Shown here piece by piece: positions 7,578-49,386 of a stretch of DNA of 64,000 nt. The translations under genes and the position numbers were made by a program. How positions within the stretch are numbered: the first letter of the stretch is position 1; each line of letters starts with the position of its first letter. The notes beneath the pieces were generated by a model, which was given only the letters and a program-made list of their open reading frames with translations, did not search any database and was not told the DNA's origin. The stretch is from Clostridia bacterium (GTDB lineage Bacteria > Bacillota > Clostridia > Oscillospirales > CAG-272). The stretch lies in assembly GCA_017408585.1 (NCBI GenBank), contig JAFQUJ010000017.1, positions 36,782 to 100,781 of the forward strand. The letters are read 5' to 3'.

Positions 7578-7590
7578 TTCTCGCTCCTAC

Positions 7591-7884: not shown

Positions 7885-7888
7885 TACC

Positions 7889-8389: not shown

Positions 8390-8395
8390 TTTTAC

Positions 8396-9529: not shown

Positions 9530-9598
9530 AGTTTCTCCTAATGATTTATAGCATTGTGGGCAAGCGCCCTTCTCTTACTACTTAGAGTAATGCTTTGT

Positions 9599-10294: not shown

Positions 10295-10295
10295 A

Positions 10296-10550: not shown

Positions 10551-10566
10551 ATCTTATCTCTTTAAC

Positions 10567-10851: not shown

Positions 10852-10866
10852 ATTATCCCCCTCCTA

Positions 10867-11133: not shown

Positions 11134-11161
11134 AAAATTCTCCTTGGTGCTCTAAGAGCGT

Positions 11162-11238
11162 TTTATATTTTTATACCGCGTAAGCGTTTGATTTGATCTA
11201 GCTTTTCATTTACTCTGTGTAGGATTTGAGATGCTCCC
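11162..11238 (+). repeat. 77-bp exact direct repeat, copy 1 (copy 2 at 12117-12193)
   Basis: tttatatttttataccgcgtaagcgtttgatttgatctagcttttcatttactctgtgtaggatttgagatgctccc at both positions. Confidence 0.95.
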
Positions 11239-12094: not shown

Positions 12095-12116
12095 ACCTTT
12101 TCTTTCCTATTCTTTA

Positions 12117-12193
12117 TTTATATTTTTATACCGCGTAAGCGTTTGATTTGATCTAGCTTTTCATTTACTCTGTGTAGGATTTGAGATGCTCCC
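12117..12193 (+). repeat. 77-bp exact direct repeat, copy 2 (the 3' end of the 92-aa gene)
   Basis: Identical to 11162-11238. Confidence 0.95.
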
Positions 12194-12396
12194 TGCTCAA
12201 TGGTATCTATATCTGCCATAAAAGAGCTTATGGCAGATAATAGATTTTCATAGTCCTCGTCATCCCAATCTCCGTTGTTTGATTGGATTCGTTTTAGCGT
12301 CTCATCGAGCGCTTCCTTTATTCCCTGAGTATATGTGCTAATGCTTAACGATGTAATCTCTAAGGCTTGCTCGTCAATGATTACGGTTTCACTCAT
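12118..12396 (-). CDS. WXG100-like protein, 92 aa (W-D-D motif)
   Basis: 'GDWDDEDY' at residue ~44; starts 2 bp after the FtsK stop. Confidence 0.7.
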   Translation of the reverse strand: MSETVIIDEQALEITSLSISTYTQGIKEALDETLKRIQSNNGDWDDEDYENLLSAISSFMADIDTIEQGASQILHRVNEKLDQIKRLRGIKI

Positions 12397-12398
12397 TA

Positions 12399-15300
12399 TT
12401 AGCCTCCAAGCTTTCTGTAGGTTTCACATAGCTTCTTATACCACTCGCTATCCACATCTGCATTATAACGATAGATTCTAATCTTGGTGGTTTCGTCAGC
12501 GTTTGCAACAATTGCAACCTTTGGATTGTTAAGTCCACTTGTTACCTTAAGATTGCTCATGAGGTGTGATACAGAGCTTGAATCAACACCCTTTGTCAAA
12601 ATCTTATATGTCATACTGCTACCAAGCTCATTTCTGATTGCAGAAATGGTTGAGGTATTGTTGATAGAAATGATAAAGTGAATTCCATACTGTCCACCCT
12701 TTTCAAGCAAGTCCTTAAATGCGGTAGCGAAAGAAATTCTATCGGGCATTTTTGAAGAGCTTGGTGTAGCGACAGATGAAGGTGCAGAGTTTCTGTTTTT
12801 GAACTTGCTACGAGCAGCGTCAGCAGAGCTTCCACCACTTGTTGTAGCCGGTTCCTCTTGTACCTCTGTTTCCTCGCTGAGAATAAGAGTTGGGTTTTCG
12901 TTAAAGAGGTCTGCGTATCTTTGGATAGAGTGAATAACGACATATCTTGGTGAGTTGTCGCTGATTTCTCCACCGAGAACATCACGCTCGTTATCTCTTT
13001 CCTTATAAAGCTTAAAGAGAGTCTTTATGCAGTTCTTGAGTGCCTCGGTCGAGGATACGGTTTCAACAACATTAGGAAAGTCGTCGCGTATTACATTGAA
13101 GAGGTCGCTCTTGTTCTCGGAGTTTATCATTTCTCCGTTTGCACAGTAAATCTTAGCTCCCTTTTGAGCGCAATCGGCATCAGTTAGTCTATTCGCTACA
13201 AGTGAAAGAAGTGAGAAACCCATCATATCTCTGATAACCTCAATATCGATACCTGCCAAAAGCATATTCATCTTTTCGCCGTCATTTCTCATATCGATAT
13301 TAAATGGCTTTCCTGTTACATAGTCTTGACCTAGCTGTAGTCTGTAGCTCTTCTTCTCTTGCTCGAGCTGTGGAGCAACAGTATAAATAGTTGTTCCCTC
13401 AACAGGTGATGGATCTTCGTTTCCACCGACAATAAACATAGGCTCTTGAGGTATGCTATCTGTAACCTTCTTCCATTTCTTAGTAATTTCTGTGGAGAAG
13501 CTTACACGCTCCTCTACGCTATATGCATAAGCGACACGGAACTCTACGCTATTGTTACCATAACGAATATCGTTGATAACACCAAGACCCTTTTCCGGTC
13601 TGTTAAGGTTTTTAACTGCTTTTGGATCGATTTTGATTTCCAACGCCTCATCCGGCTCGTTAAGACGCAAGCTGATTCTGTTTCCAATATGGTTGAGGAC
13701 CTCCTCGCGAAGTCTTGGGAACTTTGGAACATTTTGTGATGCCCAGAGAATGTTGATACCAAATGCACGGCCCTCTCTGAATAGGAAGCCAAGAGATTTG
13801 ATTGCCTCTGCGCCCGCCTGCTCGTCTGCGAAAAGAACCTGAATTTCGTCGATGATAACAAGAATTCTTGGCATCTTATAGCCCTTAGCAACATATTGAA
13901 CGATATCGGAAACTCCACACTCCTTGAACAGATTTCCTCTGCGCTCCTTCTCAATCATAAGGTTCTTGAAGATAGCAAGAGCGGAGTTGATGTCCTCGCG
14001 AAGATCAACACCCAAAAGCTTGATGTGAGGTAGGCGATGATTTTCGTAATACTTAAATTCTACGCCCTCCTTCAAGTCGAGAAGGTAAATGTTGAGCTCC
14101 TCGGGGCTATACTTATAGCAGGCACTCATAATGATAGCATGGAGAAGGTTAGATTTACCTGAACCGGTACCACCGATTGCAACTGCGTGAGCAGAGCCGT
14201 CGCCTGCGGTTTTAAGGACAAGGCTTTGTACCTCTGCACCTCTTTTACCAATAGGAATGTCGAGAACCTCTGCAGTTGGAGCGATACCCTTGGGGCTCTT
14301 AAGTCGAGCGTTGGTGTCGTCGAACATTTCTTCAAGATAAATTGGCTTACTTGCGATTTCTTGTGCGTGATCCTTCATCATTTCGATAATTGAATCAAGC
14401 TGTGAAACGCTAATGTCGCGCTTTGGCTCAAAGTAGTTGCTTACTCCAAGAGAAAGCTCAAATCTATTGCCTATTTTATTAATCACAAGAGCGCTCTTTG
14501 ATGCGGATTCAACAAAGCGCTGATGCTCAGCAGGCTTATACATAGAGCCTAGGGAGCAAGCCTTGTTGTTTATAATAATGCTAAATACGCCCGTCTTGTT
14601 TCCGGCTTGCATAAGTCTAAGGAGCTTCTTTGAGGTTTCATCTCTTAAGCCTGATGGATAGTTAGCAAGAACAAATAGATAAACATTTTGAGGGTTAGCC
14701 TGGAATTTTGAGTTGTACTCGTAAATATCCGAAACGCTATTGTAACTTAGAACCTCGTCATTAATTTTGTTCATTCTCTGCTCCATATCCTTGATGGTGT
14801 CCTCAAGCTGACGGTCATCACGAATAATTCCGCTGAGCAAAATTCCGTTACTTATTTTAGTTAGCTTTGCAAAATGTGAAAATTCCATTACATTATCAAT
14901 ATCCACTAGACAGAAATTAATTCTGTTTGCAGGGAATGACAAAAGGAATTGAATTATAAGCTGATTTACGAAATTTATCGTTTTCTCGGAGTAGTTTTCC
15001 TCGTCGATATTAAGCATGATATTTCCACACTTTTTAAGGTCGAGAACAAGAGGTGCGCTCAGGTGTCCCATCTCTAGATATCTGTCAAGAATTGGGCTAT
15101 CAGCAATATAGCCAAGATGCTTTAGGTTATCCTCAACAAGAAGCTTAATATCACCGATATTGATGCTTTGATTATAGGTATCCGTTCCTGCTACAATATC
15201 AACATCAGATTTCTTTCCGTCCTCTTCAAGCTCTACAAAAAACTTCTTTGGAATTGCCTCTACGCTTTCATCAACAAATAGCTCGTCAAAGCGCTTGGAA

Positions 15301-15980
15301 TATGTTGCGCGAAGCTTTGATTCAAACTCGGCAAGCCATGCGTTTGCGCTTCCTCCAACAAAGGAATTAAAGCCTGCGATATTGAATTTCTTATCGTAAA
15401 GCGCAATCAATGCGTCAATGCAAGCAATTGCCTTTTTACAGCAAGGGAAAATTTCGGATACGATGTTGGCAATTGGGCGTGGGTCATTAATTTGCTTCCT
15501 TTGTTTTGCGCCTGTGTCATATTTGGTTACATTTTGATGGTTACCTGTGTAGGTGATAAAGGTTTCTCCATCAACCTCAACCTTGATAGGTGGAACCAGC
15601 GCATCAAAGTCAACTGAATTTAGCTTTGCTATGCAATCGTTTATCTTGTCAAGAAGCTCGTGAAGAATCCTTTCGTTTTCCTCGTAGCTCTTGCGAGAAT
15701 ATTCCTTTGTGTCAACGCTTGTGCGATTCCACTCGTCCTTATAGTCTTTGCATAGAAGCTCGACTAAGTCGTTTATATCTTCTTGAATGCTGATAAAGTG
15801 CGTCGCCTTAAACTCCTCGTACTTTTGCTTCATTTCAGCTATCATTTCAGCTGACGCTCTCTCGATTGATCTCTTTTCGTTTGAGTATTGATTTGTCAAT
15901 CTCGCTTCAAGATTATCAATTTCAATACAATGGGAGTTGATTTTTCTAATCACTTCCATAATTTTGGTAATTTCTATCAT
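12399..15980 (-). CDS. FtsK/SpoIIIE-family (EccC/EssC-like) multi-domain ATPase, 1193 aa
   Basis: Coiled-coil N-terminus; degenerate first ATPase-like domain; intact central domain (GGTGSGKS, LVIIDEIQ, GRAFGI); degenerate third domain; no obvious transmembrane helix. Confidence 0.85.
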   Translation of the reverse strand: MIEITKIMEVIRKINSHCIEIDNLEARLTNQYSNEKRSIERASAEMIAEMKQKYEEFKATHFISIQEDINDLVELLCKDYKDEWNRTSVDTKEYSRKSYEENERILHELLDKINDCIAKLNSVDFDALVPPIKVEVDGETFITYTGNHQNVTKYDTGAKQRKQINDPRPIANIVSEIFPCCKKAIACIDALIALYDKKFNIAGFNSFVGGSANAWLAEFESKLRATYSKRFDELFVDESVEAIPKKFFVELEEDGKKSDVDIVAGTDTYNQSINIGDIKLLVEDNLKHLGYIADSPILDRYLEMGHLSAPLVLDLKKCGNIMLNIDEENYSEKTINFVNQLIIQFLLSFPANRINFCLVDIDNVMEFSHFAKLTKISNGILLSGIIRDDRQLEDTIKDMEQRMNKINDEVLSYNSVSDIYEYNSKFQANPQNVYLFVLANYPSGLRDETSKKLLRLMQAGNKTGVFSIIINNKACSLGSMYKPAEHQRFVESASKSALVINKIGNRFELSLGVSNYFEPKRDISVSQLDSIIEMMKDHAQEIASKPIYLEEMFDDTNARLKSPKGIAPTAEVLDIPIGKRGAEVQSLVLKTAGDGSAHAVAIGGTGSGKSNLLHAIIMSACYKYSPEELNIYLLDLKEGVEFKYYENHRLPHIKLLGVDLREDINSALAIFKNLMIEKERRGNLFKECGVSDIVQYVAKGYKMPRILVIIDEIQVLFADEQAGAEAIKSLGFLFREGRAFGINILWASQNVPKFPRLREEVLNHIGNRISLRLNEPDEALEIKIDPKAVKNLNRPEKGLGVINDIRYGNNSVEFRVAYAYSVEERVSFSTEITKKWKKVTDSIPQEPMFIVGGNEDPSPVEGTTIYTVAPQLEQEKKSYRLQLGQDYVTGKPFNIDMRNDGEKMNMLLAGIDIEVIRDMMGFSLLSLVANRLTDADCAQKGAKIYCANGEMINSENKSDLFNVIRDDFPNVVETVSSTEALKNCIKTLFKLYKERDNERDVLGGEISDNSPRYVVIHSIQRYADLFNENPTLILSEETEVQEEPATTSGGSSADAARSKFKNRNSAPSSVATPSSSKMPDRISFATAFKDLLEKGGQYGIHFIISINNTSTISAIRNELGSSMTYKILTKGVDSSSVSHLMSNLKVTSGLNNPKVAIVANADETTKIRIYRYNADVDSEWYKKLCETYRKLGG

Positions 15981-16025
15981 AATTAATCTCCTATTTCAAT
16001 GTTTTGTTTTTGTTAAATTTTTAAG

Positions 16026-16376
16026 CTAAGCGATTTTTCTCTCGCTCTCAAAAAAGAACAGTAATCTAACCACTCTTTCCTTGCGTCGTCTTAGCGCCTC
16101 GCTCATCTCATAGGCGTAACGCATATTTCCTTCTGCGATGGTGGCAAGCGTGTTGCGTAGCCCTTGTTGCTTGCGCTTGTAGGCGCGTAGCCTCTTAACA
16201 TATTCCTTAGTCGAGGAAATGCTATCCGGCTCTCTCTTATAAGGAGAGGGCGCATCGCCTAGGTACATATCAAAATATGTCTTATCGACAGTATCTAATA
16301 CGCTATTTTTGAAGCACTCGCCAAAACAGCTAATAGGTGGCGAGGTGGCTCTGTATTGTCCTGTTGTGTTTTTCAT
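16026..16376 (-). CDS. Hypothetical basic protein, 116 aa, first gene of the ESX-like operon
   Basis: ATG with AAGGA RBS downstream of a consensus promoter. Confidence 0.55.
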   Translation of the reverse strand: MKNTTGQYRATSPPISCFGECFKNSVLDTVDKTYFDMYLGDAPSPYKREPDSISSTKEYVKRLRAYKRKQQGLRNTLATIAEGNMRYAYEMSEALRRRKERVVRLLFFFESERKIA

Positions 16377-16476: not shown

Positions 16477-16616
16477 TATGCACAATAAACAAAGCCCCCC
16501 CCCCCATTTTTTGTGCATTTTATACAAAAACTCCAAAATTTTGATACTTTCAACAAATTTATTCTTGTCGATTTTTAAAATTATTTAGAATGTGCAAAAA
16601 ATGGTACATATATCAT

Positions 16617-16645
16617 TTGACAGGGCACTTAATATATGGTACAAT
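16617..16645 (+). promoter_or_regulatory. Sigma-A promoter of the MBL-WYL unit
   Basis: TTGACA, 17 bp ending in TG-N, TACAAT. Confidence 0.75.
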
Positions 16646-16663
16646 TATTACGAGGTGATTAAG

Positions 16664-17260
16664 ATGATTAAATGCTTTTATGGTGGCGTTCTAGACTCAA
16701 ACGCCTATCTTTTATATGATGGTGGCGAGGCGATGCTAATTGACTGTGGAGTTGCCCCTCAAAAAATTTGCGAATTTTTGCGTGAAAGCTCCCTTAAATT
16801 AAAGTACATTATCCTAACTCATGGGCATTTTGACCATGTGGAATATTCCGAGGAATACGAAAAGCTTTTCCCTGATGCTATGGTGCTTTGCCATAAGGAC
16901 GAAATTCCCGTTTTACGCGACCCTGTGGCTAATGTTACTGCTCTTTTCTCGGCTGGGCGCACATACGAGCTTAGCGCCCACGCCCTAGAGGGTGGCGAGA
17001 GGCTATTTATCGGCAACACAGAGGTGGAAATCATACACACCCCCGGACATTCTGTCGGTGGAATATGTATTTTTTGTCCTAAGGAGAATGCTATTTTTGT
17101 GGGTGATACTCTATTTCGTAACGGATATGGCAGAACTGATTTTAAGGGTGGGAGCATGACGCTTCTTCGCGCCTCGCTCAAATTATTGTTCTCGCTTGAT
17201 GGTAGCATAGAGGTTTACTCGGGACATGGTCCTAAAACGACAATAGGTCAGGAGAGTTAA
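16664..17260 (+). CDS. MBL-fold metallo-hydrolase (glyoxalase II/YcbL-like)
   Basis: THGHFDH, HTPGHS, GDTLF and GHG motifs; ATG 16664 with GAGGTG RBS. Confidence 0.9.
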   Translation: MIKCFYGGVLDSNAYLLYDGGEAMLIDCGVAPQKICEFLRESSLKLKYIILTHGHFDHVEYSEEYEKLFPDAMVLCHKDEIPVLRDPVANVTALFSAGRTYELSAHALEGGERLFIGNTEVEIIHTPGHSVGGICIFCPKENAIFVGDTLFRNGYGRTDFKGGSMTLLRASLKLLFSLDGSIEVYSGHGPKTTIGQES

Positions 17261-17261: not shown

Positions 17262-18260
17262 ATGGATTCACTTGAAAAAAAGAAGCTTGCGCTCCTTAGA
17301 ATTTTACAGATTTTATGGCGTGACAGTGACGAAAATCACCCTCTTATGCAAGAGGATATTATACGAATTCTCGACACAGAGTACGGTGTTTTAGTTGACA
17401 GACGCACAATTGGACGCAATATTGCGCTCTTAAAGGATGCGGGATTTGAGATTGAGTCCACAAGGCGTGGCTCTTATCTTGTACAGAGAGTCTTTGAGGA
17501 TAGCGAGCTACGACTTTTGATTGATAGCGTGCTTGCCAGCGCACACATAAGCCCAAGTCACTCTAAGGCTATAATTGAAAAGCTATGCTCTCTTTCGTGC
17601 AAGCATTTCAAAAGGCATGTAAAAAACATCTATTCAGTAAATGACTGGGGAAAAAGCGACAGCCCTCTTTTGTTTTTCAATATTGAAATAATTGACGAGG
17701 CAATTGAGCGTGGCCTTATGCTTTCCTTTGATTATAATAAGTATTCCTCGGATAAGCGCCTACATAAGTCGGCATCTCACATCGTAAGCCCTTACCAGAT
17801 GCTCCTTCACAATCAGCACTATTATCTTATGGCGCTAAACGAAAAATGGGGAAACATTACCTTTTATAGAATGGATAGAATTATGAACATCGCTCTTACC
17901 ACCAAACCACTAACTCCCTTGCGCTCGGTAAAGGGATACGAGGGTGGAATTGATTATAAAAAAATTGCGTGCTCTCTTCCCTATATGTTCACCGACGAGC
18001 CAAGGCGAATAACCTTTGTCGCAAAGGAGTGGGCAATTGATCAAATCGTCGATTGGTTTGGGCGTGATATTACGATTACTCCCGAGGGCGAGGACCTTCG
18101 CGTTAGTGTTTTGGCAAGCCCTAACGCTATGCTCTATTGGTGCTTGCAGTATTCGGGCGCAGTTGAGGTAATAGAGCCACAGGATCTAAGAGAAAGGGTA
18201 AAAAATGCACTACGAGAGGCACTCGAAAAATACGAAAAACAGCCCTCTCCAAATAGATAA
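17262..18260 (+). CDS. WYL-domain transcriptional regulator (wHTH-WYL-WCX)
   Basis: N-terminal HTH (VDRRTIGRNIALL); WYL core 'VSPY...YYLMA...FYRMDRI'; C-terminal 'VEVIEPQDLRERV'. Confidence 0.9.
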   Translation: MDSLEKKKLALLRILQILWRDSDENHPLMQEDIIRILDTEYGVLVDRRTIGRNIALLKDAGFEIESTRRGSYLVQRVFEDSELRLLIDSVLASAHISPSHSKAIIEKLCSLSCKHFKRHVKNIYSVNDWGKSDSPLLFFNIEIIDEAIERGLMLSFDYNKYSSDKRLHKSASHIVSPYQMLLHNQHYYLMALNEKWGNITFYRMDRIMNIALTTKPLTPLRSVKGYEGGIDYKKIACSLPYMFTDEPRRITFVAKEWAIDQIVDWFGRDITITPEGEDLRVSVLASPNAMLYWCLQYSGAVEVIEPQDLRERVKNALREALEKYEKQPSPNR

Positions 18261-18263
18261 AAG

Positions 18264-18371
18264 TGTCCCAAATTTTGGGACATTTTCTATCCTTATCTAT
18301 GTTACAATGCTATATGTAGTAATTGGCTTCAGACTTGTGTGCCAAATTTGGCTCATTATATATGAGATAAT
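18264..18371 (+). promoter_or_regulatory. Tandem promoters with palindromic operators upstream of the helicase operon
   Basis: TGTCCCA-AATTT-TGGGACA (18264-18282) then TGtTACAAT (18300-18308); TGTGCCAAATTTGGCTCA (18338-18355), 10 nt, GATAAT (18366-18371). Confidence 0.6.
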
Positions 18372-18403
18372 ATTGGCACTTAGTAAGGGAAAGGATGATT
18401 TGA

Positions 18404-21400
18404 ATGAAGCTATCACAAAAATATGTAGAGCTGTTTCTATCGGAGCTTAAGCTATACAGAAGGCTCACCGTCGCAGAGATGAACTACTACGCTCACCATC
18501 ACGACGAGCTTCTTATGGAGCTCAAGGAGCTACGCAAGCGTGCTAAGCTTGCGCGCGACAAGAAATGGTTAGAGGAGCAGGCTAGGCTCGAGGAAAAGAG
18601 GCTGGCGCGAGAGGAGGCGGAGCGTGCCGAGGCAGAGCGTCAAAGAATTCTCGAGGACGAGCGTGTTGAGAGCATAACCTGTATGGATTTGCCAACCGAT
18701 TTTGAGAACCTCTACACACAAGACGAAAATACAGAGCTTGAGCACACCGATAATGTCGGTGATGCGCTTATCAGCTCACTAAACAAGCTCGCAAGGGTTG
18801 ATATCGAATACATCTCAGCTATCACGGGGCTTGATTACAAGAGCGTTATTTTAGCGCTCAAGGGTGCGATTTATCAAAATCCGCAGAAGTGGAACGAGTG
18901 CTTCTATTTAGGCTGGGAAACGGCTGAGGAATATCTTAGTGGCTCTCTTCGTGAAAAGCTACAGGTTGCAATTGAGGCAAACGAGCGCTACAAGGGCTAC
19001 TTCTCCGACAATGTAAGAGCGCTTGAAAGGGTTATCCCATCAGGACTTAGCATAAATGATATATATGTAACTCTTGGCTCTCCGTGGCTACCCACTACTG
19101 TAATTGACGATTTTATAGTTTATTTGCTTGGCGATGTAAGCAATCGTTTTCCGGAGGGTGCTCTTAGATGCTATCACGACGAGGGTAGCGGAACATGGGA
19201 GATACCTGTCAAGAACAGATATACGGGTACAAGATACAATGGCAGATGCTTTGACACCTATGGCACGCGCGATTTGAATGCGCTGATTATCATTGAAAAA
19301 ACGCTAAATCAAGCGCCAATTGAGGTCTATGACGAATTTCCGTCAAGGACCAATCCGGGCAAGCTGGAAAAGCGCTTAAACGAGGGACGCACCTTCCGTG
19401 CGCTTGAAAAGCAAGAGGTCATTATCAAGGCGTTCAAGAGCTGGATTTGGACCTCGCCTGAGCGTCGAGCAGAGCTTGAAAGGATATATGAAACGAGGTA
19501 TTCCTCTAACAGAGTGCGTCATTTTGACGGCTCGTTTCTCACTTTACCGGGGCTTAGTCCTGACATAGAGCTTTATCCTTATCAAAGAAATGCGGTTGCT
19601 CGTATTCTCTTCACCCCTAACACTCTGCTTGCTCACGATGTTGGAAGCGGTAAAACCTACATTATGATTGCAAGCGCTATGGAGCTAAAAAGAACAGGCA
19701 TCTCCAAAAAGAACATATTTGTCGTTCCAAATAACCTGGTTGGTCAGTGGAAGGATATTTTCTTATCGATGTATCCCGAGGCTAAGCTCCTTTGCGTTGA
19801 GCCAAAGAGCTTTACTCCTAAAAAGCGTCTTGGTGTCTTAAAGCAGATGCGCGACGAGGAATTTGACGGAATTATTATTGCGTATAGCTCCTTTGAGCTT
19901 ATTCCATTTTCAAAGAAAGCACAAATCGAGGCGCTCGAGGCAGAGCTGGCAGAATACAACAAGGCAACAACCAATCTTTACACAGACCGCTATGCAAGGC
20001 AAAAGAAGGCGCTTGAAAAGAAAATAGCAGAGCTATACGAGAAAACAGAGCTATCCCTTGGCTCAATTTTCTTTGACGAGCTAGGTATAAGCACTATCTT
20101 CATTGACGAGGCGCACAACTATAAAAATGTGCCACTTCACACTCACACGGGCAGGGTTTTGGGAATTAGCTCCTCGGGTAGCACAAAGTGTCAGGATATA
20201 TTAAACAAGGTTCGCTATGTTCAAAGGACAAATGGCGGACGAGGCTGTGTTTTAGCGACAGGAACGCCCATTACAAACTCGATAACTGATGCGTTTATTA
20301 TGCAGAAATTTCTTCAAGATGGCGAGCTAAAGCTACTTGGACTTTCCAGCTTTGATGGCTGGATTGGTATGTTTGCCGAAAAGCACACGGACTTTGAAAT
20401 AGATGTCGATACAAGCTCGTATCGCTTGACCACTCGCTTTTCGAGATTTCACAACCTACCCGAGCTAACTAAGCTCCTTGCCAGCGTTGCCGACTTCCAT
20501 GTCGTTGACCAAAGCGATGGCGTTCCCTTGCTTGACGGATATACGGATTGCGTGTGCTCTCGCTCAAGCGAGTTTAAGGGCTATCTCAAGGTAATATCCG
20601 CTCGTGCTGAGGATGTGCGCTCACGCAGAGTTCCAAGAACGGAGGACAATATGCTTCTTATCACAACAGATGGTCGTAAGGCGGCGCTTGATATGCGTCT
20701 TATTGACGACACAATCGTGGTAAGTGGTCACTCCTCAAAGGCGCAGGCGTGCGCAGATAACGCCTTCGATATTTACAAGCGATATGAGCTTACGAAAAGC
20801 ACACAGCTTATATTCTGTGACTACTCTACCCCAAAGGCAACATTTAATCTCTATGACGAGATACGCACACTGCTTGTTGCTAAGGGCGTTCCCTATGACG
20901 AGATTGCGTTTGTTCATTCGGCGACAACACCCGCATCACGCGATAAGCTCTTTGAGGCAGTAAGGCGCGGAGAGATACGAATTTTGATTGGCTCTACCTT
21001 CAAGCTGGGGCTTGGCGTAAATGTTCAGGACAAGCTAATTGCAATCCATCACCTTGATGTTCCGTGGCGTCCTGCCGACATGACACAGCGTGAGGGCCGT
21101 ATTCTTCGTCAAGGAAATGAAAACGAGAGGGTTTTCATATTTAGATATATAACCAAGGGTAGCTTTGATGCGTATTCTTGGCAATTGCTTGAAACTAAGC
21201 AACGCTTTATCAGCTCTATTTTGTGTGGACACATGACAGAAAGAAGCGGAAGCGATGTGTGTGATACGGTGCTTTCATATGCCGAGGTAAAGGCGCTAGC
21301 TGTCGGAAATCCGCTTATCAAGAAAAGGGTTGAGATAGCAAACGAGCTTGACAGGCTATCAATTTTGAAGCGTGAGCGAGTTTTGCGCTTTGAGAGCTTA

Positions 21401-21910
21401 AAGCTAGAGCTTGAGGCTCTCCCATCTAAGATTGAGGCACAAGAGGTCATATTAGAGCGTGCAAGGCTTGACATGGCGTTTCTTGGCGAGCAAGAAGCTC
21501 CGCCCGAGCTTTCGCCCGACGAGCGTCGCGCATTTAGAGAGCGTCTTGAAATCGCTCTGCGCTCAAATACTCTTGCAAGCGAGGAAAGAGAGCTATTTGA
21601 GCATCGTGGCTTTATGCTTGTGCTGGGGGCAGGAATGAAGGCTGACGAGCCATTTATTTGGCTTACGCGCGAGGGCAAATACCACCTTGAGCTAGGCGAG
21701 GCCAGCCTTGGCTATTTACCTCGTATCAACAATTTCCTTGACAGCTTCAAAAAGCATCTTGAAAGGCTTGAGGAGGGCTACGAGGCGCTTATAAACAGGC
21801 GTCGAGATATTGAAATTGCACTTAGCGAGCGTGACGAGTACTCACAAAGAATAGAGGAGCTAAAAGCAGAGCTACAACAATTAGATAAGAAATTAGGAGT
21901 TACACAATGA
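18404..21910 (+). CDS. SNF2-related SF2 helicase (DarB/ICE methylase-helicase family) without a methyltransferase domain, 1168 aa
   Basis: LYPYQ, HDVGSGKT, DEAHNYKN, ATGTP, GLGVNVQ and QREGRILRQGN motifs; no NPPF/Y motif seen. Confidence 0.85.
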   Translation: MKLSQKYVELFLSELKLYRRLTVAEMNYYAHHHDELLMELKELRKRAKLARDKKWLEEQARLEEKRLAREEAERAEAERQRILEDERVESITCMDLPTDFENLYTQDENTELEHTDNVGDALISSLNKLARVDIEYISAITGLDYKSVILALKGAIYQNPQKWNECFYLGWETAEEYLSGSLREKLQVAIEANERYKGYFSDNVRALERVIPSGLSINDIYVTLGSPWLPTTVIDDFIVYLLGDVSNRFPEGALRCYHDEGSGTWEIPVKNRYTGTRYNGRCFDTYGTRDLNALIIIEKTLNQAPIEVYDEFPSRTNPGKLEKRLNEGRTFRALEKQEVIIKAFKSWIWTSPERRAELERIYETRYSSNRVRHFDGSFLTLPGLSPDIELYPYQRNAVARILFTPNTLLAHDVGSGKTYIMIASAMELKRTGISKKNIFVVPNNLVGQWKDIFLSMYPEAKLLCVEPKSFTPKKRLGVLKQMRDEEFDGIIIAYSSFELIPFSKKAQIEALEAELAEYNKATTNLYTDRYARQKKALEKKIAELYEKTELSLGSIFFDELGISTIFIDEAHNYKNVPLHTHTGRVLGISSSGSTKCQDILNKVRYVQRTNGGRGCVLATGTPITNSITDAFIMQKFLQDGELKLLGLSSFDGWIGMFAEKHTDFEIDVDTSSYRLTTRFSRFHNLPELTKLLASVADFHVVDQSDGVPLLDGYTDCVCSRSSEFKGYLKVISARAEDVRSRRVPRTEDNMLLITTDGRKAALDMRLIDDTIVVSGHSSKAQACADNAFDIYKRYELTKSTQLIFCDYSTPKATFNLYDEIRTLLVAKGVPYDEIAFVHSATTPASRDKLFEAVRRGEIRILIGSTFKLGLGVNVQDKLIAIHHLDVPWRPADMTQREGRILRQGNENERVFIFRYITKGSFDAYSWQLLETKQRFISSILCGHMTERSGSDVCDTVLSYAEVKALAVGNPLIKKRVEIANELDRLSILKRERVLRFESLKLELEALPSKIEAQEVILERARLDMAFLGEQEAPPELSPDERRAFRERLEIALRSNTLASEERELFEHRGFMLVLGAGMKADEPFIWLTREGKYHLELGEASLGYLPRINNFLDSFKKHLERLEEGYEALINRRRDIEIALSERDEYSQRIEELKAELQQLDKKLGVTQ

Positions 21911-23019
21911 AGGATTTTGGAAAAATAAACATTCCCATTTTGAGCGTTGACAAAACCGTTGAGGCTCTATCAAGCATATATATATCTGCTGTAATATCGG
22001 ACACCCCCTTTAAGAGCCTACCATCAATCATGCTCTGGGGTGCGCCCGGTATCGGTAAATCTCAGCTTGTGCGTGCTCTTGCCGAGGAAATTCAAGGCGG
22101 AACGGGCAAAAGGTGCGTTGTAACCGATGTGCGCTTGCTTTTGTTCAACCCGATTGACCTTCGTGGCATTCCAACCGCAAGCGCCGACAAGACCCTTGCG
22201 GTTTGGCTAAAGCCAAAGATATTCCAAATGGACGAAAGCGACGAGGTTGTAAACATTCTGTTCCTTGATGAGATTTCGGCTGCACCTCAATCGGTTCAAG
22301 CGGCGGCATACCAAATCACGCTTGACAGAATTATAGGTGAGCATTCTCTGCCCGACAACTGCATAGTTATTGCGGCAGGAAACAGAGTAACAGACAAGAG
22401 CGTTGCGTACAAGATGCCTCGTGCGCTTGCCAACCGTCTTTGCCACATTGAAATTGAGGCGAATTTTGATTCATGGCTTCGTTGGGCTGTATCACACGAA
22501 ATTTCACCAAAGATTGTCGGTTTTTTATCGTTTAGGCACGATATGCTTCTGGAAAATGATGCGTCAAGCGACAATCAAGCATTTCCAACTCCTCGTTCAT
22601 GGGAGATGGTAAGCAATCTATTAAAGGTTTCGGGTGATGACCCAAGCGCAATTTATCCACTTATATCGGGCTGTGTAGGTGGTGGCGTTGCAACTGAATT
22701 CTGCTCCTGGTGCAGAGTCTTTTCAAGGCTTCCAAAAATAGAGGATGTATTCACGGGACGCTACACAGAAATCCCCTCAGAAACAGATGTGCTTTATGCG
22801 CTGATTTCCTCGATGACCTCATATGTAAGGGAGCATCAAAATGATATAAGAGGAATTGAGCTTTCTATTCAATACGCTATGAGGCTTCCCGCCGACTTCT
22901 CTGTTGTTCTGCTTAAAAACTACATGGCAATAAACGAGGATTTCAAGCGATATCTTATGACCATTCCAAGCTTCACAAGATGGCTTAGCTCAAAGGGGAG
23001 ATACCTAAATGGCAATTGA
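21907..23019 (+). CDS. MoxR-like AAA+ ATPase, 370 aa
   Basis: GAPGIGKS, LFLDE, AAGN, ALANR and TPRSW motifs; ATGA overlap with the helicase. Confidence 0.88.
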   Translation: MKDFGKINIPILSVDKTVEALSSIYISAVISDTPFKSLPSIMLWGAPGIGKSQLVRALAEEIQGGTGKRCVVTDVRLLLFNPIDLRGIPTASADKTLAVWLKPKIFQMDESDEVVNILFLDEISAAPQSVQAAAYQITLDRIIGEHSLPDNCIVIAAGNRVTDKSVAYKMPRALANRLCHIEIEANFDSWLRWAVSHEISPKIVGFLSFRHDMLLENDASSDNQAFPTPRSWEMVSNLLKVSGDDPSAIYPLISGCVGGGVATEFCSWCRVFSRLPKIEDVFTGRYTEIPSETDVLYALISSMTSYVREHQNDIRGIELSIQYAMRLPADFSVVLLKNYMAINEDFKRYLMTIPSFTRWLSSKGRYLNGN

Positions 23020-24301
23020 TATGACAAGGGCTCGTGCCTGCGCTAACAGGCTTTTGATGTCGAGGCTTCGCATTCTTGGAAATCACGGCTTTTACGGACT
23101 TCTTTTGTCGCATATTACCTTCGCTCTTGACGAGAGCCTGGATACTGCGGCAACTGATGCGAAAAAAATCTACTTTTCGCCCGATTTTCTTGATAAGCTC
23201 TCCGACTCGGAGCTTGATTTTATTATGATGCACGAAATTATGCATGTGGTGCTTCAGCATTGCTTTCGTGATGGGGATAGAAACCCCGATGCGTTTAATA
23301 TCGCGTGTGACATTGTCGTAAATTCAAACATTTTAAAGAGCCTAGGTGGCAATTTAAGCAGTATTACTGTTAGGTGCGCCGGTGGTGAGTCGATGCATCT
23401 AGCTCCCGATGGCAAGGAGGGGCATCTATACACAGCCGAGGAGGTTTATGAGATGCTCCCCGATTCAATTAAAAATCAGCGTCCCAAGAGTGGCTCAGGC
23501 GAGGGTGACGGGGACAGTCAGGACAATTCCTCGGGCAATCCGCAGAGTCGTGGCTCTGCCTCGACGAGTGGCAAGCTAAAGCCACTTGATGACCATTCAA
23601 GATGGGGAACGGGCGAAATTGACAACGAAATAGTTGACCTTTGGGCAGGGCATCTGGAGGATGCGATTAAGGTTATCACCATAACAGAGCCCTCTAACAC
23701 ATGGGGCAACATTCCCGCCTTTGCACAAAGAATGCTACGCGAGCGAAGCGAGGGACAAACGAATTGGCGCGAGGTGCTAAGCAACTTCGTTCAAGAGGAG
23801 ATAAACGATTATTCCTTCTCTCCACCCGACAGGCGCTTTGGAGAATTCGATTTCTTCTTGCCCGATTACAACGAAACGGACGAGAGCGTAAAGGATATTT
23901 TATTTATGATAGATACCTCGGGCTCAATGACTGACCAAATGATAACTGATGCCTTTAACGAGGTGCGTGGAGCTATACTCCAATTTAACGGACGCCTCGA
24001 AGCGCATCTTGGCTTCTTTGATGCTACTGTCGTCGAACCTGTCACTCCGTTTTCGAGCATTGACGAGCTTGACATTATTCGTCCTATTGGTGGCGGTGGC
24101 ACGAATTTCCACTGTGTTTTCCATTATGTGCGCTCAAAAATGGACACTCTCCCCTCTAGTATTATAATTTTGACTGATGGCTACGCTCCGTTTCCACAAA
24201 AGCAGGATGCTATGGACATTCCTGTGCTTTGGGTTATCAACAATGAAGAGGTTGACCCACCGTGGGGCAAGGTTATAAGAATTAAGGACATCTCAAAATA
24301 A
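23009..24301 (+). CDS. Putative metallopeptidase (HExxH) + vWA domain protein (DUF2201-type)
   Basis: TAATD, HEIMH, NIACD; MIDAS DTSGS, GGGGT and LTDG. Confidence 0.85.
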   Translation: MAIDMTRARACANRLLMSRLRILGNHGFYGLLLSHITFALDESLDTAATDAKKIYFSPDFLDKLSDSELDFIMMHEIMHVVLQHCFRDGDRNPDAFNIACDIVVNSNILKSLGGNLSSITVRCAGGESMHLAPDGKEGHLYTAEEVYEMLPDSIKNQRPKSGSGEGDGDSQDNSSGNPQSRGSASTSGKLKPLDDHSRWGTGEIDNEIVDLWAGHLEDAIKVITITEPSNTWGNIPAFAQRMLRERSEGQTNWREVLSNFVQEEINDYSFSPPDRRFGEFDFFLPDYNETDESVKDILFMIDTSGSMTDQMITDAFNEVRGAILQFNGRLEAHLGFFDATVVEPVTPFSSIDELDIIRPIGGGGTNFHCVFHYVRSKMDTLPSSIIILTDGYAPFPQKQDAMDIPVLWVINNEEVDPPWGKVIRIKDISK

Positions 24302-24306
24302 AGCAA

Positions 24307-24332
24307 AAAATCTCGACATGTGTCGAGATTTT
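24307..24332. terminator. Bidirectional intrinsic terminator
   Basis: AAAATCTCGACA-TG-TGTCGAGATTTT between convergent genes. Confidence 0.75.
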
Positions 24333-24363
24333 CGCTTTTTGGGCTTTTATTTATGAATTGAGC

Positions 24364-25623
24364 TTAGGCAATATCAACCTTAACTATGCTATGCTCTGAG
24401 CGAATTCTTGCAATATCCGAGGCAAGAAGTGTTTTCCTTTCAAGGAGCTCTCTTGCAACTGCCTCGTAGAAGCCCCTGTTTTTGCAAAGCATTTCCTTTG
24501 CCTTGAACAAATATTCGTCAAGCTTTGCTCTTGTAAGTAGCTCACTTTCGTGCTGACTGCGCTCCGAGGTATCACTATATCCACATCCGAGAACATGGTT
24601 GCCCATAGTTCCGCTATCCGTTATTGCGTCCTTTATATGAGCTTGCGCTCTATACAAATCGTTTTGCGCTCCACTTGCGACTCTGCCTAAGGTAAGCTCC
24701 GCTCCTGCCTTGCCACCGAGAATAGTCAAGATTATGTGTGCTCGTCTTCTGTGCTCCTTGCATTTACGGACAAATCCTATTCTGTCCGAGCCACAAAGGG
24801 CAGAAATTGAAACCATTCCGACGCTTCCCTCCAAAATAAGCTCCGATATTACTGCGTGTCCCGCCTCGTGATAGGCTACCTCGGTTAGTTCGTCCTCAGT
24901 TAGCTCGTTAAGGCTTCTTATATGATAGTTTTCGCGTAGGGTTGCCATTACAAGATGACGCATTTCGACCTTGTCGCATCTTTCATATGCTGCGTAAACT
25001 GCGGCATCGTTAATTGTCGCCTCAAGTGTTGCACAGGAATCGCCTGCAAGCATTTTTGCAACATCGTCAATATTTACATCTGCGACAATCGGCTTGCCCT
25101 TAAGATAATGCTCTATTATCTTCGTTGCATCGTCTATGCTCGGCGCTTCAACAACAATTCGTCTATCAAAGCGACCACTTCTTATAAGTGATTTTGGGAT
25201 ATCTCCGAGATCATTTGCGGTGGCAATTATAAACACATCATCGCACTTAACCTTATCAATCCACGCTTGAACTGCCGATAGCTCCTCTTGACTTCCGTCT
25301 TGACAGGGGAACTTGTCAAGGTCGTCGAGAAGTATGATTGACGGGGCGTTTTGCTGTGCCTCGGTAAAGACTCTTTCTATCTCTCTTATAAAGTCCCCGT
25401 CGCCCTTTGTTCTGCGTAGAATATATGAATTTATGCCACACGCCTCAATCAAGGTATGCGCCATAAGTGATTTGCCAAGTCCGGGTGCGCCATTTATCAA
25501 AATTCCGTTGGGCATATTTGCGCCCATTTTCTTGTAAATGTCACGATTTTGCACGATGTCGCAGATTTGCTTTAATTCGTCCTTAATTTTCTCATAGCCA
25601 ATAATTTTTTCAAATGCTTTCAT
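24364..25623 (-). CDS. Soluble FtsH-like AAA+ / peptidase M41 protein with no membrane anchor, 419 aa
   Basis: ATG 25623 with AGGAG RBS; GAPGLGKS, LLDDLD, LIRSGRFD, AYHEAGH and GAQND. Confidence 0.85.
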   Translation of the reverse strand: MKAFEKIIGYEKIKDELKQICDIVQNRDIYKKMGANMPNGILINGAPGLGKSLMAHTLIEACGINSYILRRTKGDGDFIREIERVFTEAQQNAPSIILLDDLDKFPCQDGSQEELSAVQAWIDKVKCDDVFIIATANDLGDIPKSLIRSGRFDRRIVVEAPSIDDATKIIEHYLKGKPIVADVNIDDVAKMLAGDSCATLEATINDAAVYAAYERCDKVEMRHLVMATLRENYHIRSLNELTEDELTEVAYHEAGHAVISELILEGSVGMVSISALCGSDRIGFVRKCKEHRRRAHIILTILGGKAGAELTLGRVASGAQNDLYRAQAHIKDAITDSGTMGNHVLGCGYSDTSERSQHESELLTRAKLDEYLFKAKEMLCKNRGFYEAVARELLERKTLLASDIARIRSEHSIVKVDIA

Positions 25624-25662
25624 TTTCTTTTCTCCTGTTCGTTTTGGTTTTGGTGTACTAAT

Positions 25663-25820
25663 ATTGTACCATTTCTTATGTGCTAAAAATGGCACATAAA
25701 TGACGGTGGCGCGATTTTTTTCGTAATTACGATTTTCAAGGAGAAATCGCTTATCTCCCTCAGCTGTTTTTTGATTGTAGCACAGCATAGGGTCAAAAGT
25801 CTACTACATTTTGGGACTTT
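25663..25820 (-). promoter_or_regulatory. Tandem promoters mirroring those at 18264-18371
   Basis: Minus strand: GTCCCAAA...TGcTACAAT (25817-25774); TGTGCCATTTTTAGCACA (25696-25679), 10 nt, TACAAT (25668-25663). Confidence 0.6.
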
Positions 25821-25922
25821 TTTTCGCCACAGGGTATCTTGTCATATTTTTGCGACACCAAGGGCGATTTTGAGAGGTTTTTTGAAAATTTTTTATCAAA
25901 AATCGCACACAGGGTATCAAAA

Positions 25923-30969: not shown

Positions 30970-31004
30970 AAAAGAAATCGGCTTTTTAGAGCCGATTTTT
31001 CTTT
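30970..31004. terminator. Intrinsic terminator after pyk
   Basis: AAAAGAAATCGGCT-TTTTAG-AGCCGATTTTTCTTTT. Confidence 0.7.
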
Positions 31005-32415
31005 TATATAGTTTCCATTCTAATTGTGTTTGTGTTTCCGCTAGCACCTGTTTGAGAACCACCGGTGATAACGATTTTATCGCCAATCGCAAGGCCGAGC
31101 TTATCCTTAACCAGCTTCTTTGCGGTATAGAACAGCACCTCAATTTGTGGGTAAACCTCACACATAACAGGGATTACGCCCCATGATAGTGCAAGCTGAT
31201 GCCATGTCTTTTCGCTAACTGTAAGTCCTACAATATCAACAGGTGAACGGAAGCGTGATACCATTCTTGCGGTCATACCCGACATTGAGCAAACAACGAT
31301 TGCCTTTGCACCGATATCCATCGCCATTCCACACACGGAGTGCGAGATTGCGTCCATTGAATTCTTAATTCTAAAATCTGTTGTGTAGAAAATCCTTCTG
31401 TAATCAACATTCTTTTCAGCCTGCTCTGCAATCTTTGCCATTGTTTGTACTGTGAGAACAGGGTATTTGCCCGCAGCGGTTTCGCCCGATAGCATAATTG
31501 CACTTGTGCCATCAAAAACTGCGTTAGCAACATCGGAAATCTCCGCTCTTGTCGGGCGTGGATTTGTTGTCATGCTTTCGAGCATTTCGGTTGCGGTAAT
31601 AACTCGCTTACCGAGCATACGGCATTTGGTGATAATCTTCTTTTGGATTGCAGGCACTTCCTCGAATGGAATTTCAACGCCCATATCTCCACGGCCAATC
31701 ATAATTCCGTCGCACTCGGAGCAAATAGACTCGATATTATCAACTCAGATTGATTTTCAATCTTTGCAATAATGCCGATATTGGTTGCGCCATTCGCCTT
31801 TAAAAACTCCTTGACATCGAGCACATCCTGTACTCTTGAAACGAATGAGCACGCTATGTATTCAAAATCGTTTTCGATAGCGAAAAGAAGGTCTCTTTTA
31901 TCCTGCTCGCTAAGATATACCTGATTCATTACCTGTCCCGGGAAGCTCATGCTCTTACGATTTGAAATCTCACCGCCCGCAACAATTTTACAAACAATTT
32001 CGGTATCCTCGATTTTTTCAACCTTAAACACCAAAAGTCCGTTATTTACAAGAATTGTATCGCCAACATCAAGCTCAGCATTAAGATTTTTGTAGCTTAC
32101 TGATACGATAGTGCTATTGCCTACAATATCACGAGTTGTAAAGGTGAATGTATCGCCCTCCTTTATCGTTTCCTTGCCATTTTCAAATGTGCCGATACGA
32201 TATTCGGGGCCCTTTGTGTCAAGCATAATAGCAAGAGGAATATTCAGCTCACGACGCACACGCTTTAGCATATCAACATTACGCTGATGATCCTCGTGAG
32301 TTCCGTGTGAAAAGTTAAGCCTTGCAACATTCATTCCGGCAAGAGCCATTTGTGTTAGTGTCGCCTCGTTGTTACACGCAGGACCGATTGTGCATACGAT
32401 TTTAGTTTTTCTCAT
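31004..32415 (-). pseudogene. pyk: Pyruvate kinase split by a 1-bp deletion near 31746 (real lesion or sequencing error)
   Basis: MRKTKIVCTIGP...AKIENQS in one frame, continuing as (G)VDNIESICSECDGIMIGRGDMGVE...PTRAE in another; adding one G (TCT GGA GTT) restores the frame. Confidence 0.85.
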
Positions 32416-49382: not shown

Positions 49383-49386
49383 AAAA

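Follow-up and report, generated by a model that had tools for sequence, protein, structure and literature searches.

A candidate MoxR–vWA cassette with a DarB-type DNA motor, and a separable WYL/FtsH-like pair, in a Clostridia genome

In the MoxR–vWA 'ternary' conflict systems, a MoxR AAA+ ATPase and a von Willebrand factor A (vWA) protein are joined by a VMAP, iSTAND, two-domain FtsH or β-propeller partner (Kaur, Burroughs, Iyer and Aravind 2020, PMC7159879). A MoxR/vWA pair is also encoded by jumbo phages, where a role in virion assembly and processing has been proposed (Iyer et al. 2021, PMC7824862). DarB of phage P1 belongs to the methylase–SNF2 'dyad' of polyvalent proteins (Iyer et al. 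2017, PMC5512222), in the text of which neither 'MoxR' nor 'vWA' occurs as a term. WYL regulators of the BrxR type bind inverted repeats, for which one repeat can be enough (Picton et al. 2022, PMC9122601). These papers are cited for the passages that deal with the systems named. Here, we describe a locus that brings relatives of these components together, in a 64 000-nucleotide stretch of contig JAFQUJ010000017.1 from a Clostridia bacterium (assembly GCA_017408585.1, positions 36 782–100 781; 'the window'). It encodes a WYL regulator, an SNF2-type helicase, a MoxR-like ATPase, a HExxH metallopeptidase–vWA protein and an FtsH-like protease.

It had originally been predicted, from the letters of the window, that these five genes make up one WYL-controlled system. 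We are highly confident that what is conserved is the cassette of helicase, MoxR and metallopeptidase/vWA genes (the triad, below), and that the WYL and FtsH-like genes make up a distinct pair, often located in the same islands. The reading that we favour, with a probability of about 0.5, is that the locus is a composite of two separable modules, the core of which would be a new 'ternary' MoxR–vWA conflict cassette with a DNA motor as its third component.

The helicase–MoxR–metallopeptidase/vWA cassette

The MoxR and vWA genes lie directly downstream of the helicase gene, and in the same orientation, in 68 of the 70 helicase loci for which 2.5 kb or more of downstream DNA is available. Where the downstream DNA is shorter (ten loci), at least the start of the MoxR gene is present in eight, and one locus (L105; loci carry L numbers and genomes G numbers) ends at the helicase. 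The co-occurrence expected in the original prediction therefore stands for these three genes and fails for the other two, which are optional: a WYL gene was found within the fetched flanks of 35 of 80 triad loci, and an FtsH-like gene in eight of them. The 80 loci represent the closest clade only (helicase identity 52–74%), because they are the best 80 of 522 matches. They come from a scan of one genome per species with an alignment-based query, in which 522 of 598 pattern matches held relatives; an earlier scan of genome contigs with the single helicase protein as query had returned no relative.

A class-wide sample of 400 Clostridia genomes, of which 399 were scored, gives the same picture. 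The peptidase domain of the vWA protein, DUF2201_N, is encoded in 42 of the 400 genomes and adjoins a helicase only in the window genome (G000) and in G278, G363, G396 and G185, and these are exactly the genomes that carry a stand-alone helicase of the triad clade. In eight genomes a distant, mostly methylase-fused helicase relative and a DUF2201_N gene are both present, on different contigs. The pairwise-identity matrices of the three triad proteins correlate with one another (Spearman 0.80–0.86, 55 loci), and the three genes pass on as a single block, by inheritance or by transfer.

The closest relative, L036 (74% helicase identity), has the order EssC–MBL–helicase–MoxR–vWA–DUF4886–PtsI (MBL, metallo-β-lactamase) at the same chromosomal place, without a WYL or FtsH-like gene, and the same is true of L037–L039. 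The 9.5-kb arrangement of the window recurs, at approximately 99% identity, in contigs of three other studies, and is therefore stable in the species. The possibility had been raised that the genes are remnants of a decayed integrative and conjugative element. This was rejected: the reading frames and motifs are intact, L036–L039 are syntenic with housekeeping flanks, and the near-identical contigs come from elsewhere.

All five genes of the window are intact, with open reading frames (ORFs) as first described (Table 1). The MoxR gene overlaps the helicase gene by 4 nt and the vWA gene overlaps the MoxR gene by 11 nt. The catalytic motifs are present throughout, namely GSGKT and DEAH in the helicase, Walker A and B in the AAA+ ATPase, HEIMH and DTSGS in the vWA protein, and HEAGH in the M41 domain. 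The FtsH-like gene converges on the vWA gene, and a hairpin sits between the two.

Table 1. Features of the locus, with their positions in the window.
Feature	Position	Strand	Basis or remark
MBL-fold hydrolase gene	16592..17260	+	Pfam Lactamase_B 4.5e-31; first gene of the unit holding the WYL gene
WYL/WCX transcription factor, 332 aa	17262..18260	+	Pfam WYL 1.9e-9, WCX 5.5e-8, HTH_11 5e-4 (weak)
Candidate regulatory element	18265..18309	+	Palindrome GTCCCAAATTTTGGGAC, then TGTTACAAT (extended -10-like), upstream of the helicase operon
SNF2-type helicase/translocase, 1168 aa	18404..21910	+	Pfam ResIII, SNF2-rel_dom, Helicase_C
MoxR-like AAA+ ATPase, 370 aa	21907..23019	+	Pfam AAA; AAA_3 31.3 bits versus cut-off 27
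HExxH metallopeptidase–vWA protein, 430 aa	23009..24301	+	Pfam DUF2201_N 5e-31, DUF2201 vWA 1e-14
Bidirectional terminator-like hairpin	24307..24332	.	12-nt perfect inverted repeat, T-rich tails on both strands
Soluble FtsH-like AAA+/M41 protease, 419 aa from Met56	24364..25623	-	Pfam AAA 1e-19, Peptidase_M41 1.6e-12
Second GTCCCAAA-N30-TACAAT copy	25774..25817	-	Upstream of the FtsH-like gene; same orientation, same 30-nt spacing

The helicase had been called a methylase-less DarB/SNF2 protein, from a family usually fused to an N6-methylase on mobile elements, and both statements are borne out. It matches phrog_10089 ('DarB-like antirestriction') at 4.8e-226, no methyltransferase domain was found by Pfam in its 1168 residues, and it belongs to a clade apart from the methylase-fused giant proteins. 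In eight of eight giant relatives examined, N6_Mtase/Eco57I domains immediately precede the helicase part on its N-terminal side. Plasmid records with a relative number 1340 (680 predicted to be conjugative) and phage records 102, some of the relatives being annotated as DarB-like antirestriction proteins; the best of these is at most 38.6% identical. Within the class sample, a relative at E <= 1e-50 is present in 75 of the 399 genomes. Most of the long matches are open frames of 2000–3945 aa at 36–42% identity; stand-alone helicases at 48–55% are found, besides the window genome, only in G396, G363, G185 and G278, with a more distant one (44%) in G208. In a quick maximum-likelihood tree built on the motor core, with 57 rows (the window; the sample loci L002–L030 except L015, which has a stop codon and was left out, hence 28 of 29; L035; and every third locus of L036–L115), 23 giants are split from 34 stand-alone helicases, and the separating branches have 100% support in the Shimodaira–Hasegawa-like approximate likelihood ratio test. 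Among proteins of similar length, 3734 helicase-related clusters at 90% identity were found, the best 120 of which are all at least 54% identical to the query.

In order, the helicase has a coiled coil at the N-terminus, an acidic peptide, the motor, and a second coiled coil with a small β domain at the C-terminus. Across 28 sequences, motifs I, II (DEAH), III and VI do not vary. By sequence, it has no close match among solved structures. The AlphaFold2 model (mean predicted local distance difference test score, pLDDT, 70.9) has the SNF2 motor fold, and its top Foldseek matches are SMARCAD1, Mot1, Chd1, ISWI, CSB and ZorD of Zorya; that is, apart from ZorD, translocases on double-stranded DNA (dsDNA) that remodel or displace DNA-bound proteins. 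The acidic peptide (residues ~92–103) is conserved, with the motif [STC][MWL][DE]L[PA]xx[FWY]x[NDS] in 60 of 80 helicase ORFs. The pLDDT of this segment is below 50, and the peptide stops where the alignment to the giants starts (residues 104–116). In the tree, L096, from a metagenome-assembled genome labelled Lachnospiraceae, and G396 (L002, from another family) have helicase cores on near-zero branches (0 and 0.016), and family labels are intermixed across the triad clade; these observations suggest recent horizontal transfer or mislabelled bins.

The MoxR-like ATPase matches phrog_1297 at 8.2e-93. Its Walker A and B motifs are invariant and the mean column identity is 75% across 36 sequences. 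A search of solved structures with the MoxR profile gave no relative by sequence, and the assignment to this clade therefore rests on Pfam and PHROG. The metallopeptidase–vWA protein matches phrog_1314 at 6.2e-79, and in 36 sequences H75, E76 and H79 are invariant, together with D302, S304, S306, T389 and D390 of the metal ion-dependent adhesion site (MIDAS). The vWA fold is clear (Z 13.3 against integrin I domains), and the MIDAS domain of MDN1 is among the Foldseek matches; the structure-match lists for this protein (Foldseek, VIA) are filled by the vWA domain. For the peptidase domain, DUF2201_N, there are weak SprT-like (0.0084) and M48 (0.0032) matches, both under the Pfam cut-offs, and the PDB, searched by sequence, returned no more than a marginal match to the minigluzincin MJ1213 (E 0.076). 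In the literature searched, by titles and abstracts, no paper has the function of DUF2201 as its subject.

The MoxR/metallopeptidase–vWA pair occurs in 599 phage records, including N4-like phages, phage G and cyanophage S-TIM5. It corresponds to N4 gp24 and the adjacent metallopeptidase gene of the N4-like phage Pokken, in which a P-loop NTPase gene annotated as similar to N4 gene 24 adjoins a 'putative metallopeptidase' gene. Among the records listed, the phage versions of the vWA protein are at most 31% identical to that of the window. Twelve IMG/VR contigs, several of jumbo-phage size, carry the pair without a helicase, and in six of the 12 the MoxR protein is 41–44% identical. The triad itself was found in two of the 14 IMG/VR loci returned (L134 and L135). 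In L134 (4216–6902) the helicase is cut to its last 275 residues, overlapping the preceding gene for a 671-aa large serine recombinase, with MoxR and vWA intact; an element may have integrated into the helicase gene.

Companion genes, candidate control element and surroundings

Where a WYL gene is present near the triad, its position and strand vary, and it reaches at least 50% identity in 17 of the 35 loci. Six of the eight triad loci that have an FtsH-like gene also have a WYL gene, and the window genome (1.48 Mb, 69% complete) has two WYL genes. The WYL protein of the window matches the PADLOC WYL model at 6.9e-25. Its gene starts 1 nt beyond the stop codon of the MBL gene, and a consensus-like promoter (TTGACA-17-TACAAT) was found at 16617–16645; the WYL gene probably shares the strong promoter of the MBL gene.

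The FtsH-like protease had been described as soluble, and this holds because its N-terminus, inspected by eye, has no hydrophobic stretch; over its whole length the protein aligns with FtsH, and only with the cytosolic part of it (2dhr residues 29–465). The ORF is open back to 25788, and translation probably starts at Met56 (25623), a start favoured because GGAG stands 9 nt upstream and because the resulting 419 aa are near the 426–436 aa of relatives. Its TIGR01241 score is 176.6 bits versus a cut-off of 600, and a canonical FtsH is encoded elsewhere in the window genome, which makes this the second M41 gene. In 17 orthologs, Walker A, the arginines of the second region of homology and HExxH are invariant; Walker B ends in DD, not DE, in all 17.

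Orthologs of the FtsH-like protein (at least 38% identity, frames of 416–480 aa) are present in 12 of the 399 genomes, and ten of the 12 have no triad. Only G000 and G363 have both (20 kb apart in G363). When eight triad-less FtsH-like loci were viewed with wider flanks, five had a WYL gene beside the FtsH-like gene or separated from it by a single gene, and a sixth had a weak match (23%). The WYL and FtsH-like genes are thus a pair in their own right, in genomes without the triad. The idea of a single five-gene system did not survive as an obligate arrangement, given the triad of L036 without either companion and the pair without the triad. All five genes are nevertheless found together in other loci: in L052 they are co-oriented, in L080 and L082 a GmrSD pair has been inserted, and L064, L098 and L099 contain more genes.

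The WYL/soluble FtsH-like combination forms a recurrent small operon in L148, L149 and L152–L155, all from genomes without the triad. In L152 and L153 a distant relative (26–27%) of a 543-aa protein of unknown family lies between the two genes. This operon is a candidate two- or three-gene system, of which no description was found in the literature searched. Around the triad, a 674-aa AAA+ protein (AAA plus AAA_lid_6) was seen in 13 loci and an unknown 278-aa protein in ten (L052, L058, L060, L063, L064, L066, L080, L082, L096, L099, L107 and others); the gene for the latter is usually directly beside that for the 674-aa ATPase or the FtsH-like gene, and the protein matched no family in Pfam, PADLOC and PHROG searches.

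Shared control of the helicase operon and the FtsH-like gene is possible. The octamer GTCCCAAA has three copies in the 64 kb. Two of them make a palindrome 122 nt upstream of the helicase start, and the third is upstream of the FtsH-like gene in sense orientation; at both sites the octamer stands exactly 30 nt before a TGnTACAAT box. The composite GTCCCAAA-N30-TACAAT has two occurrences in the window, one ahead of the helicase gene and one ahead of the FtsH-like gene, and none in 100 shuffles. Across relatives, the exact octamer is 8.4-fold denser in helicase 5' regions (eight in 31 kb versus 40 in 1308 kb), the hits coming from the window and four other loci. An operator conserved across loci was considered and rejected, the palindrome scan having found no palindrome shared upstream of the helicase across loci and the octamer being weakly enriched. 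The putative control motif, on which the proposed control by the WYL factor depends, would then be specific to the window, and it is a lead, not a result, because the pattern was defined post hoc and the octamer count is unremarkable.

Comparison of 47 ORFs across the window with Pfam gave housekeeping genes (PtsI, pyruvate kinase, RmuC, HolA) and a cluster resembling a type VII secretion system (T7SS). No phage structural gene, integrase or relaxase was found among these ORFs, in agreement with what had been said of the neighbourhood at the outset. The T7SS-like cluster (2925–16376, minus strand) comprises an EssC-like FtsK/SpoIIIE ATPase of 1193 aa, a second FtsK-domain protein of 294 aa, several ORFs of 84–97 aa, a C39-like peptidase and a 1550-aa BspA-type leucine-rich repeat protein. 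The best match of its FtsK/SpoIIIE ATPases is T7SS EssC, under the curated cut-offs. The part of the cluster proximal to the triad is syntenic in L036. Between the cluster and the MBL gene is an intergenic run of ~11 C (16506–16516), which could be a phase-variable tract or a sequencing artefact. The MBL gene stays near the triad in the closest relatives (upstream in L036–L038, downstream in L040, L042 and L043), and a second MBL family is found downstream of the triad in L044–L046 and L067; it could be a fourth component or just an ancestral neighbour. An 81-aa ORF (18205–18450) was taken as spurious, with no homolog cluster among 84 loci.

Further away, pyruvate kinase is encoded in two ORFs (31004–32415, minus strand) that overlap by 4 nt, the N-part at 31699–32415 and the C-part at 31004–31702. 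In L037 it is one gene of 470 aa, and the split in the window is due either to a frameshift or to an error of assembly. A bacterial serpin gene (Pfam Serpin 2e-91) is present at 44871–46295 (minus strand), and a second, canonical MoxR system at 46467–54467 (minus strand). The latter is a Bat-like operon, with an AAA_3 MoxR protein (711 aa, with an N-terminal extension), DUF58, BatA-vWA and a 984-aa vWA protein.

Proposed function of the cassette and rival explanations

In the composite reading, the first module would comprise a translationally coupled SNF2 dsDNA translocase, a MoxR-like ATPase and a Zn-metallopeptidase/vWA-MIDAS adaptor; the second, accessory module would be the WYL/WCX factor with the soluble FtsH-like AAA-M41 protease. 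The WYL factor would sense a nucleic-acid or ligand signal and, in the window genome, control the helicase operon and the FtsH-like gene via the shared upstream element. The translocase would track along DNA that is foreign or abnormal, the disordered acidic peptide peculiar to its clade might dock on the MIDAS of the vWA protein, and the MoxR hexamer would provide the remodelling force. The metallopeptidase could then cut either the N-terminal coiled coil of the helicase itself, as an activation step, or a protein on the tracked DNA, and the outcome would be interference with phage or other mobile DNA. We infer each of these steps, and the defensive direction of the conflict; that the cassette acts against invading DNA on the side of the host has about even odds. 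In keeping with a role in conflict, all three core families are phage-linked (phrog_10089, phrog_1297 and phrog_1314), the fold of the motor resembles dsDNA translocases that act on DNA-bound proteins as well as ZorD, and the flanks of the triad, which vary by locus, contain conflict genes of several kinds: type IV restriction (GmrSD/HEC-06/Orf5-like), McrBC, PDC-S02, PDC-S26, PDC-S23 (Fic), BnzB and TIR-TPR. Such a gene is found in at least 15 of 84 loci, which is a floor.

A number of observations weigh against this reading. The conflict genes were counted without a control set. (Of 1116 ORFs called among the neighbours, 114 were compared with Pfam and 62 with PADLOC, and the context counts are therefore lower bounds.) Many flanking genes are ordinary housekeeping genes (ATP synthase, gyrase, aspartyl-tRNA synthetase, PtsI, glutamine synthetase), and other neighbours point to DNA or nucleotide metabolism: a DUF2779/Cas4-like nuclease (nine loci), proteins resembling uracil-DNA glycosylase (UDG), PHP/DnaE and LigA, and Macro and NADAR proteins. 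(NT5C and metallophosphoesterases are further nucleotide-related neighbours.) Large serine recombinases lie beside the triad in L054, L083 and L092, and in L134 and L135 from IMG/VR, as would fit mobile cargo. The block is not without exceptions: L089 has decayed partners, L081 has a helicase without partners, L103 shows no partner within 1.5 kb downstream of the helicase, and the stand-alone helicase of G208 lacks MoxR/vWA partners. The median pairwise identity of the triad proteins is 58–69% across Clostridia families, unlike fast-evolving immune sensors. By sequence, the closest solved relatives of the WYL protein are PafC (3.7e-5) and DriD-type proteins, which are DNA-damage activators, and no protein named BrxR or CapW was found for it among solved structures at E <= 1. 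PADLOC matches of the helicase, AAA+ and FtsH-like proteins are weak or at domain level, and the vWA protein matches no PADLOC model. As for the control element, its pattern was defined post hoc; the octamer alone is not over-represented in the window (three copies versus 1.57 expected, with three reached in 20 of 100 shuffles), and beyond the window it is present in the helicase 5' regions of only four loci, two of which are close kin. Finally, one metatranscriptome has four small near-identical contigs on the helicase (two), vWA and FtsH-like genes, which are compatible with expression and are no proof of it, as strand, ends and level are not readable from contigs and gaps in their coverage carry no information.

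Several of these points would be accommodated by a module for DNA damage or roadblock removal, in which the WYL protein acts in the manner of PafBC/DriD, triggered by single-stranded DNA (ssDNA), the translocase finds stuck or cross-linked proteins, and MoxR, the vWA-metallopeptidase and, in the window genome, also the soluble FtsH-like protease extract and degrade them, as p97 does with SPRTN/Wss1 or as in proteolytic restriction alleviation. The PafC- and DriD-type relatives of the WYL protein, the likeness of the helicase fold to Mot1 and CSB (motors that act on DNA-bound proteins), the recurrent DNA-metabolism neighbours (UDG-like, DUF2779/Cas4-like, DnaE/PHP-like, LigA-like, Macro and NADAR) and the high conservation of the three triad proteins are all consistent with such a role, as are the SprT-like and M48 matches of DUF2201_N, which however fall under the Pfam cut-offs. 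Set against it are the patchy spread of the triad (five of 399 Clostridia genomes), the wide variation of its insertion sites, the type IV restriction genes and PDC candidates that recur nearby, and the phage links of all three core families; we consider a damage role unlikely. It has to be asked also whether the cassette is cargo of the opposite allegiance, a DarB- or ArdC-like counter-defence that shields mobile DNA from host restriction, with the copy in the window domesticated or stranded. No helicase from a phage or plasmid exceeds 38.6% identity, and among the IMG/VR loci returned the triad is in just two out of 14. A recombinase is absent from most loci, the cassette lacks the methylase half of the DarB dyad, and the chromosomal site is syntenic, with housekeeping flanks (L036–L039), and stable across samples. 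This explanation is improbable in our view, even with the membership of the helicase in phrog_10089 and its relatives in 1340 plasmid (680 predicted conjugative) and 102 phage records, the frequency of the MoxR/vWA pair in phages (599 records, with jumbo-phage MoxR proteins at 41–44% identity), the large serine recombinases beside five triads (L134, L135, L054, L083 and L092), and the PcfJ-like, ParB-like and DnaB-like genes of some triad islands.

A further explanation is that one variable island happens to house both the triad and the WYL/FtsH-like pair with no functional relation between them, their adjacency and the shared octamer being coincidental. The triad of L036 does without either companion, 72 of 80 triad loci have no FtsH-like gene, ten of the 12 genomes with an FtsH-like ortholog have no triad, WYL genes in relatives adjoin other cargo (GmrSD, PDC-S02, PDC-S26), and the octamer count alone is not significant. 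Coincidence would, however, have to account for the recurrence of all five genes in L052 (co-oriented), L064, L080, L082, L098 and L099, for the WYL gene in six of the eight triad loci with an FtsH-like gene, for the identical orientation and 30-nt spacing of the octamer to TGnTACAAT at both promoters, and for this in a 1.48-Mb genome with just two WYL genes; independence seems to us somewhat less than likely, and worth keeping in mind. A bolder proposal is a DNA-tracking protease machine, in which the translocase would hand the proteins that it meets on DNA, via the MIDAS-docked acidic peptide, to the MoxR-powered Zn protease, while, in the window genome, an ssDNA-sensing WYL activator would co-induce the cassette and the FtsH-like protease. 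Nucleoproteins of phages or plasmids, enzymes that have stalled, or covalent adducts might serve as substrates. We hold this version to be doubtful; were it true, it would be a prokaryotic counterpart of p97–SPRTN/Wss1-type proteolysis on DNA, and would provide the first function for the widespread phage pair of the N4 gp24/gp25 type.

Irrespective of which explanation is correct, DarB-type motors and the phage MoxR/metallopeptidase–vWA pair are both very common in mobile DNA, and here they are joined in a compact, clonable chromosomal operon. The cassette is a tractable entry point, with clear sites for point mutants (Walker A in the two ATPases, HExxH, MIDAS and the acidic peptide). Given the 3734 related clusters, a function for it would annotate many genes in Clostridia of the animal gut. 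If the composite reading is right and the cassette is defensive, a class with a DNA motor would be added to the MoxR–vWA conflict systems. The WYL/soluble FtsH-like pair is a second lead, as a small candidate system.

Comparison with described systems

The combination had not been recognized as a named system, and no full match to a defence model was expected. This agrees with the PADLOC comparison, which gave only generic helicase, IetA and WYL domain matches and no system, and with the literature searched (supplementary tables lying outside the search), in which neither the triad nor the WYL/FtsH-like pair is described. The helicase matches models such as DrmD, BrxHI/BrxHII, ZorD, DpdE and HmaA in the Helicase_C or motif I region only (E 1e-14 to 1e-5), its NCBIfam scores against named defence helicases are 20–61 bits versus cut-offs of 610–1500, and partner genes of DISARM, Zorya, BREX, Hachiman and Dpd are absent from the neighbours scanned. 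The PADLOC IetA model matches the AAA domain of the FtsH-like protein at 6.5e-17. IetAS is a system reportedly described by Gao and colleagues in 2020; the FtsH-like protein differs from it in scoring 51.3 bits versus the IteA cut-off of 510, and no IetS-type serine protease partner was seen. FtsH itself is resembled over the full length of the protein by the AAA+ and M41 (HExxH) domains; unlike FtsH, the protein has no transmembrane or periplasmic part, is below the equivalog cut-off and has DD in Walker B.

The WYL protein is like BrxR in its architecture (winged helix-turn-helix, WYL and WCX) and in its place at the edge of a variable island, including beside GmrSD enzymes in L064, L080 and L082; its orthologs also stand beside PDC-S02 and PDC-S26 genes. 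The candidate sites here are one palindrome and one half-site, to be compared with the inverted or single repeats in the passages on BrxR binding (PMC9122601). Its nearest solved relatives by sequence are PafC and DriD. The MoxR and vWA proteins represent the same two families that adjoin one another in the phage N4 gp24 pair (phrog_1297 and phrog_1314), and the phage pairs, unlike the triad, have no DarB-type helicase alongside. The role in virion assembly proposed in the passages on jumbo phages (PMC7824862) cannot apply to the triad, because this is a chromosomal cassette without virion genes.

DarB and the helicase share a homologous motor over ~1050 residues with its motifs intact, and identity to the giants of Clostridia is 37–42%. 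Unlike the DarB dyad, the helicase of the window has no methyltransferase, stands alone at ~1150 aa, and has its own N-terminal coiled coil and acidic peptide; unlike the giants, it is chromosomal, is partnered with MoxR–vWA and falls in a separate clade. Carriage by a phage or conjugative element, as for DarB, was not seen, there being no mobile-element genes among the 47 window ORFs scanned.

The closest parallel is with the ternary systems (PMC7159879). Both have a MoxR AAA+ ATPase, an adjacent vWA/MIDAS protein able to carry a peptidase, and a third conserved component. The systems in that paper, like the cassette in our reading, are proposed to be triggered by invaders, and one class described there adds an FtsH-type ATPase. 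That FtsH component has two AAA domains, with M41 absent from the passages concerned; the protein here has a single AAA domain with M41, and is optional. According to the same passages, the ternary systems concentrate in multicellular bacteria, whereas the triad is found in gut Clostridia, and an SNF2-clade helicase is mentioned only as an effector partner of restriction endonuclease domains. The peptidase of the triad also differs, being a DUF2201_N HExxH domain. The MoxR gene with its adjacent MIDAS-vWA gene thus follows the described plan, and the third component departs from it: in place of VMAP, iSTAND, two-domain FtsH or β-propeller proteins, the cassette has a translocase of the SNF2/DarB type.

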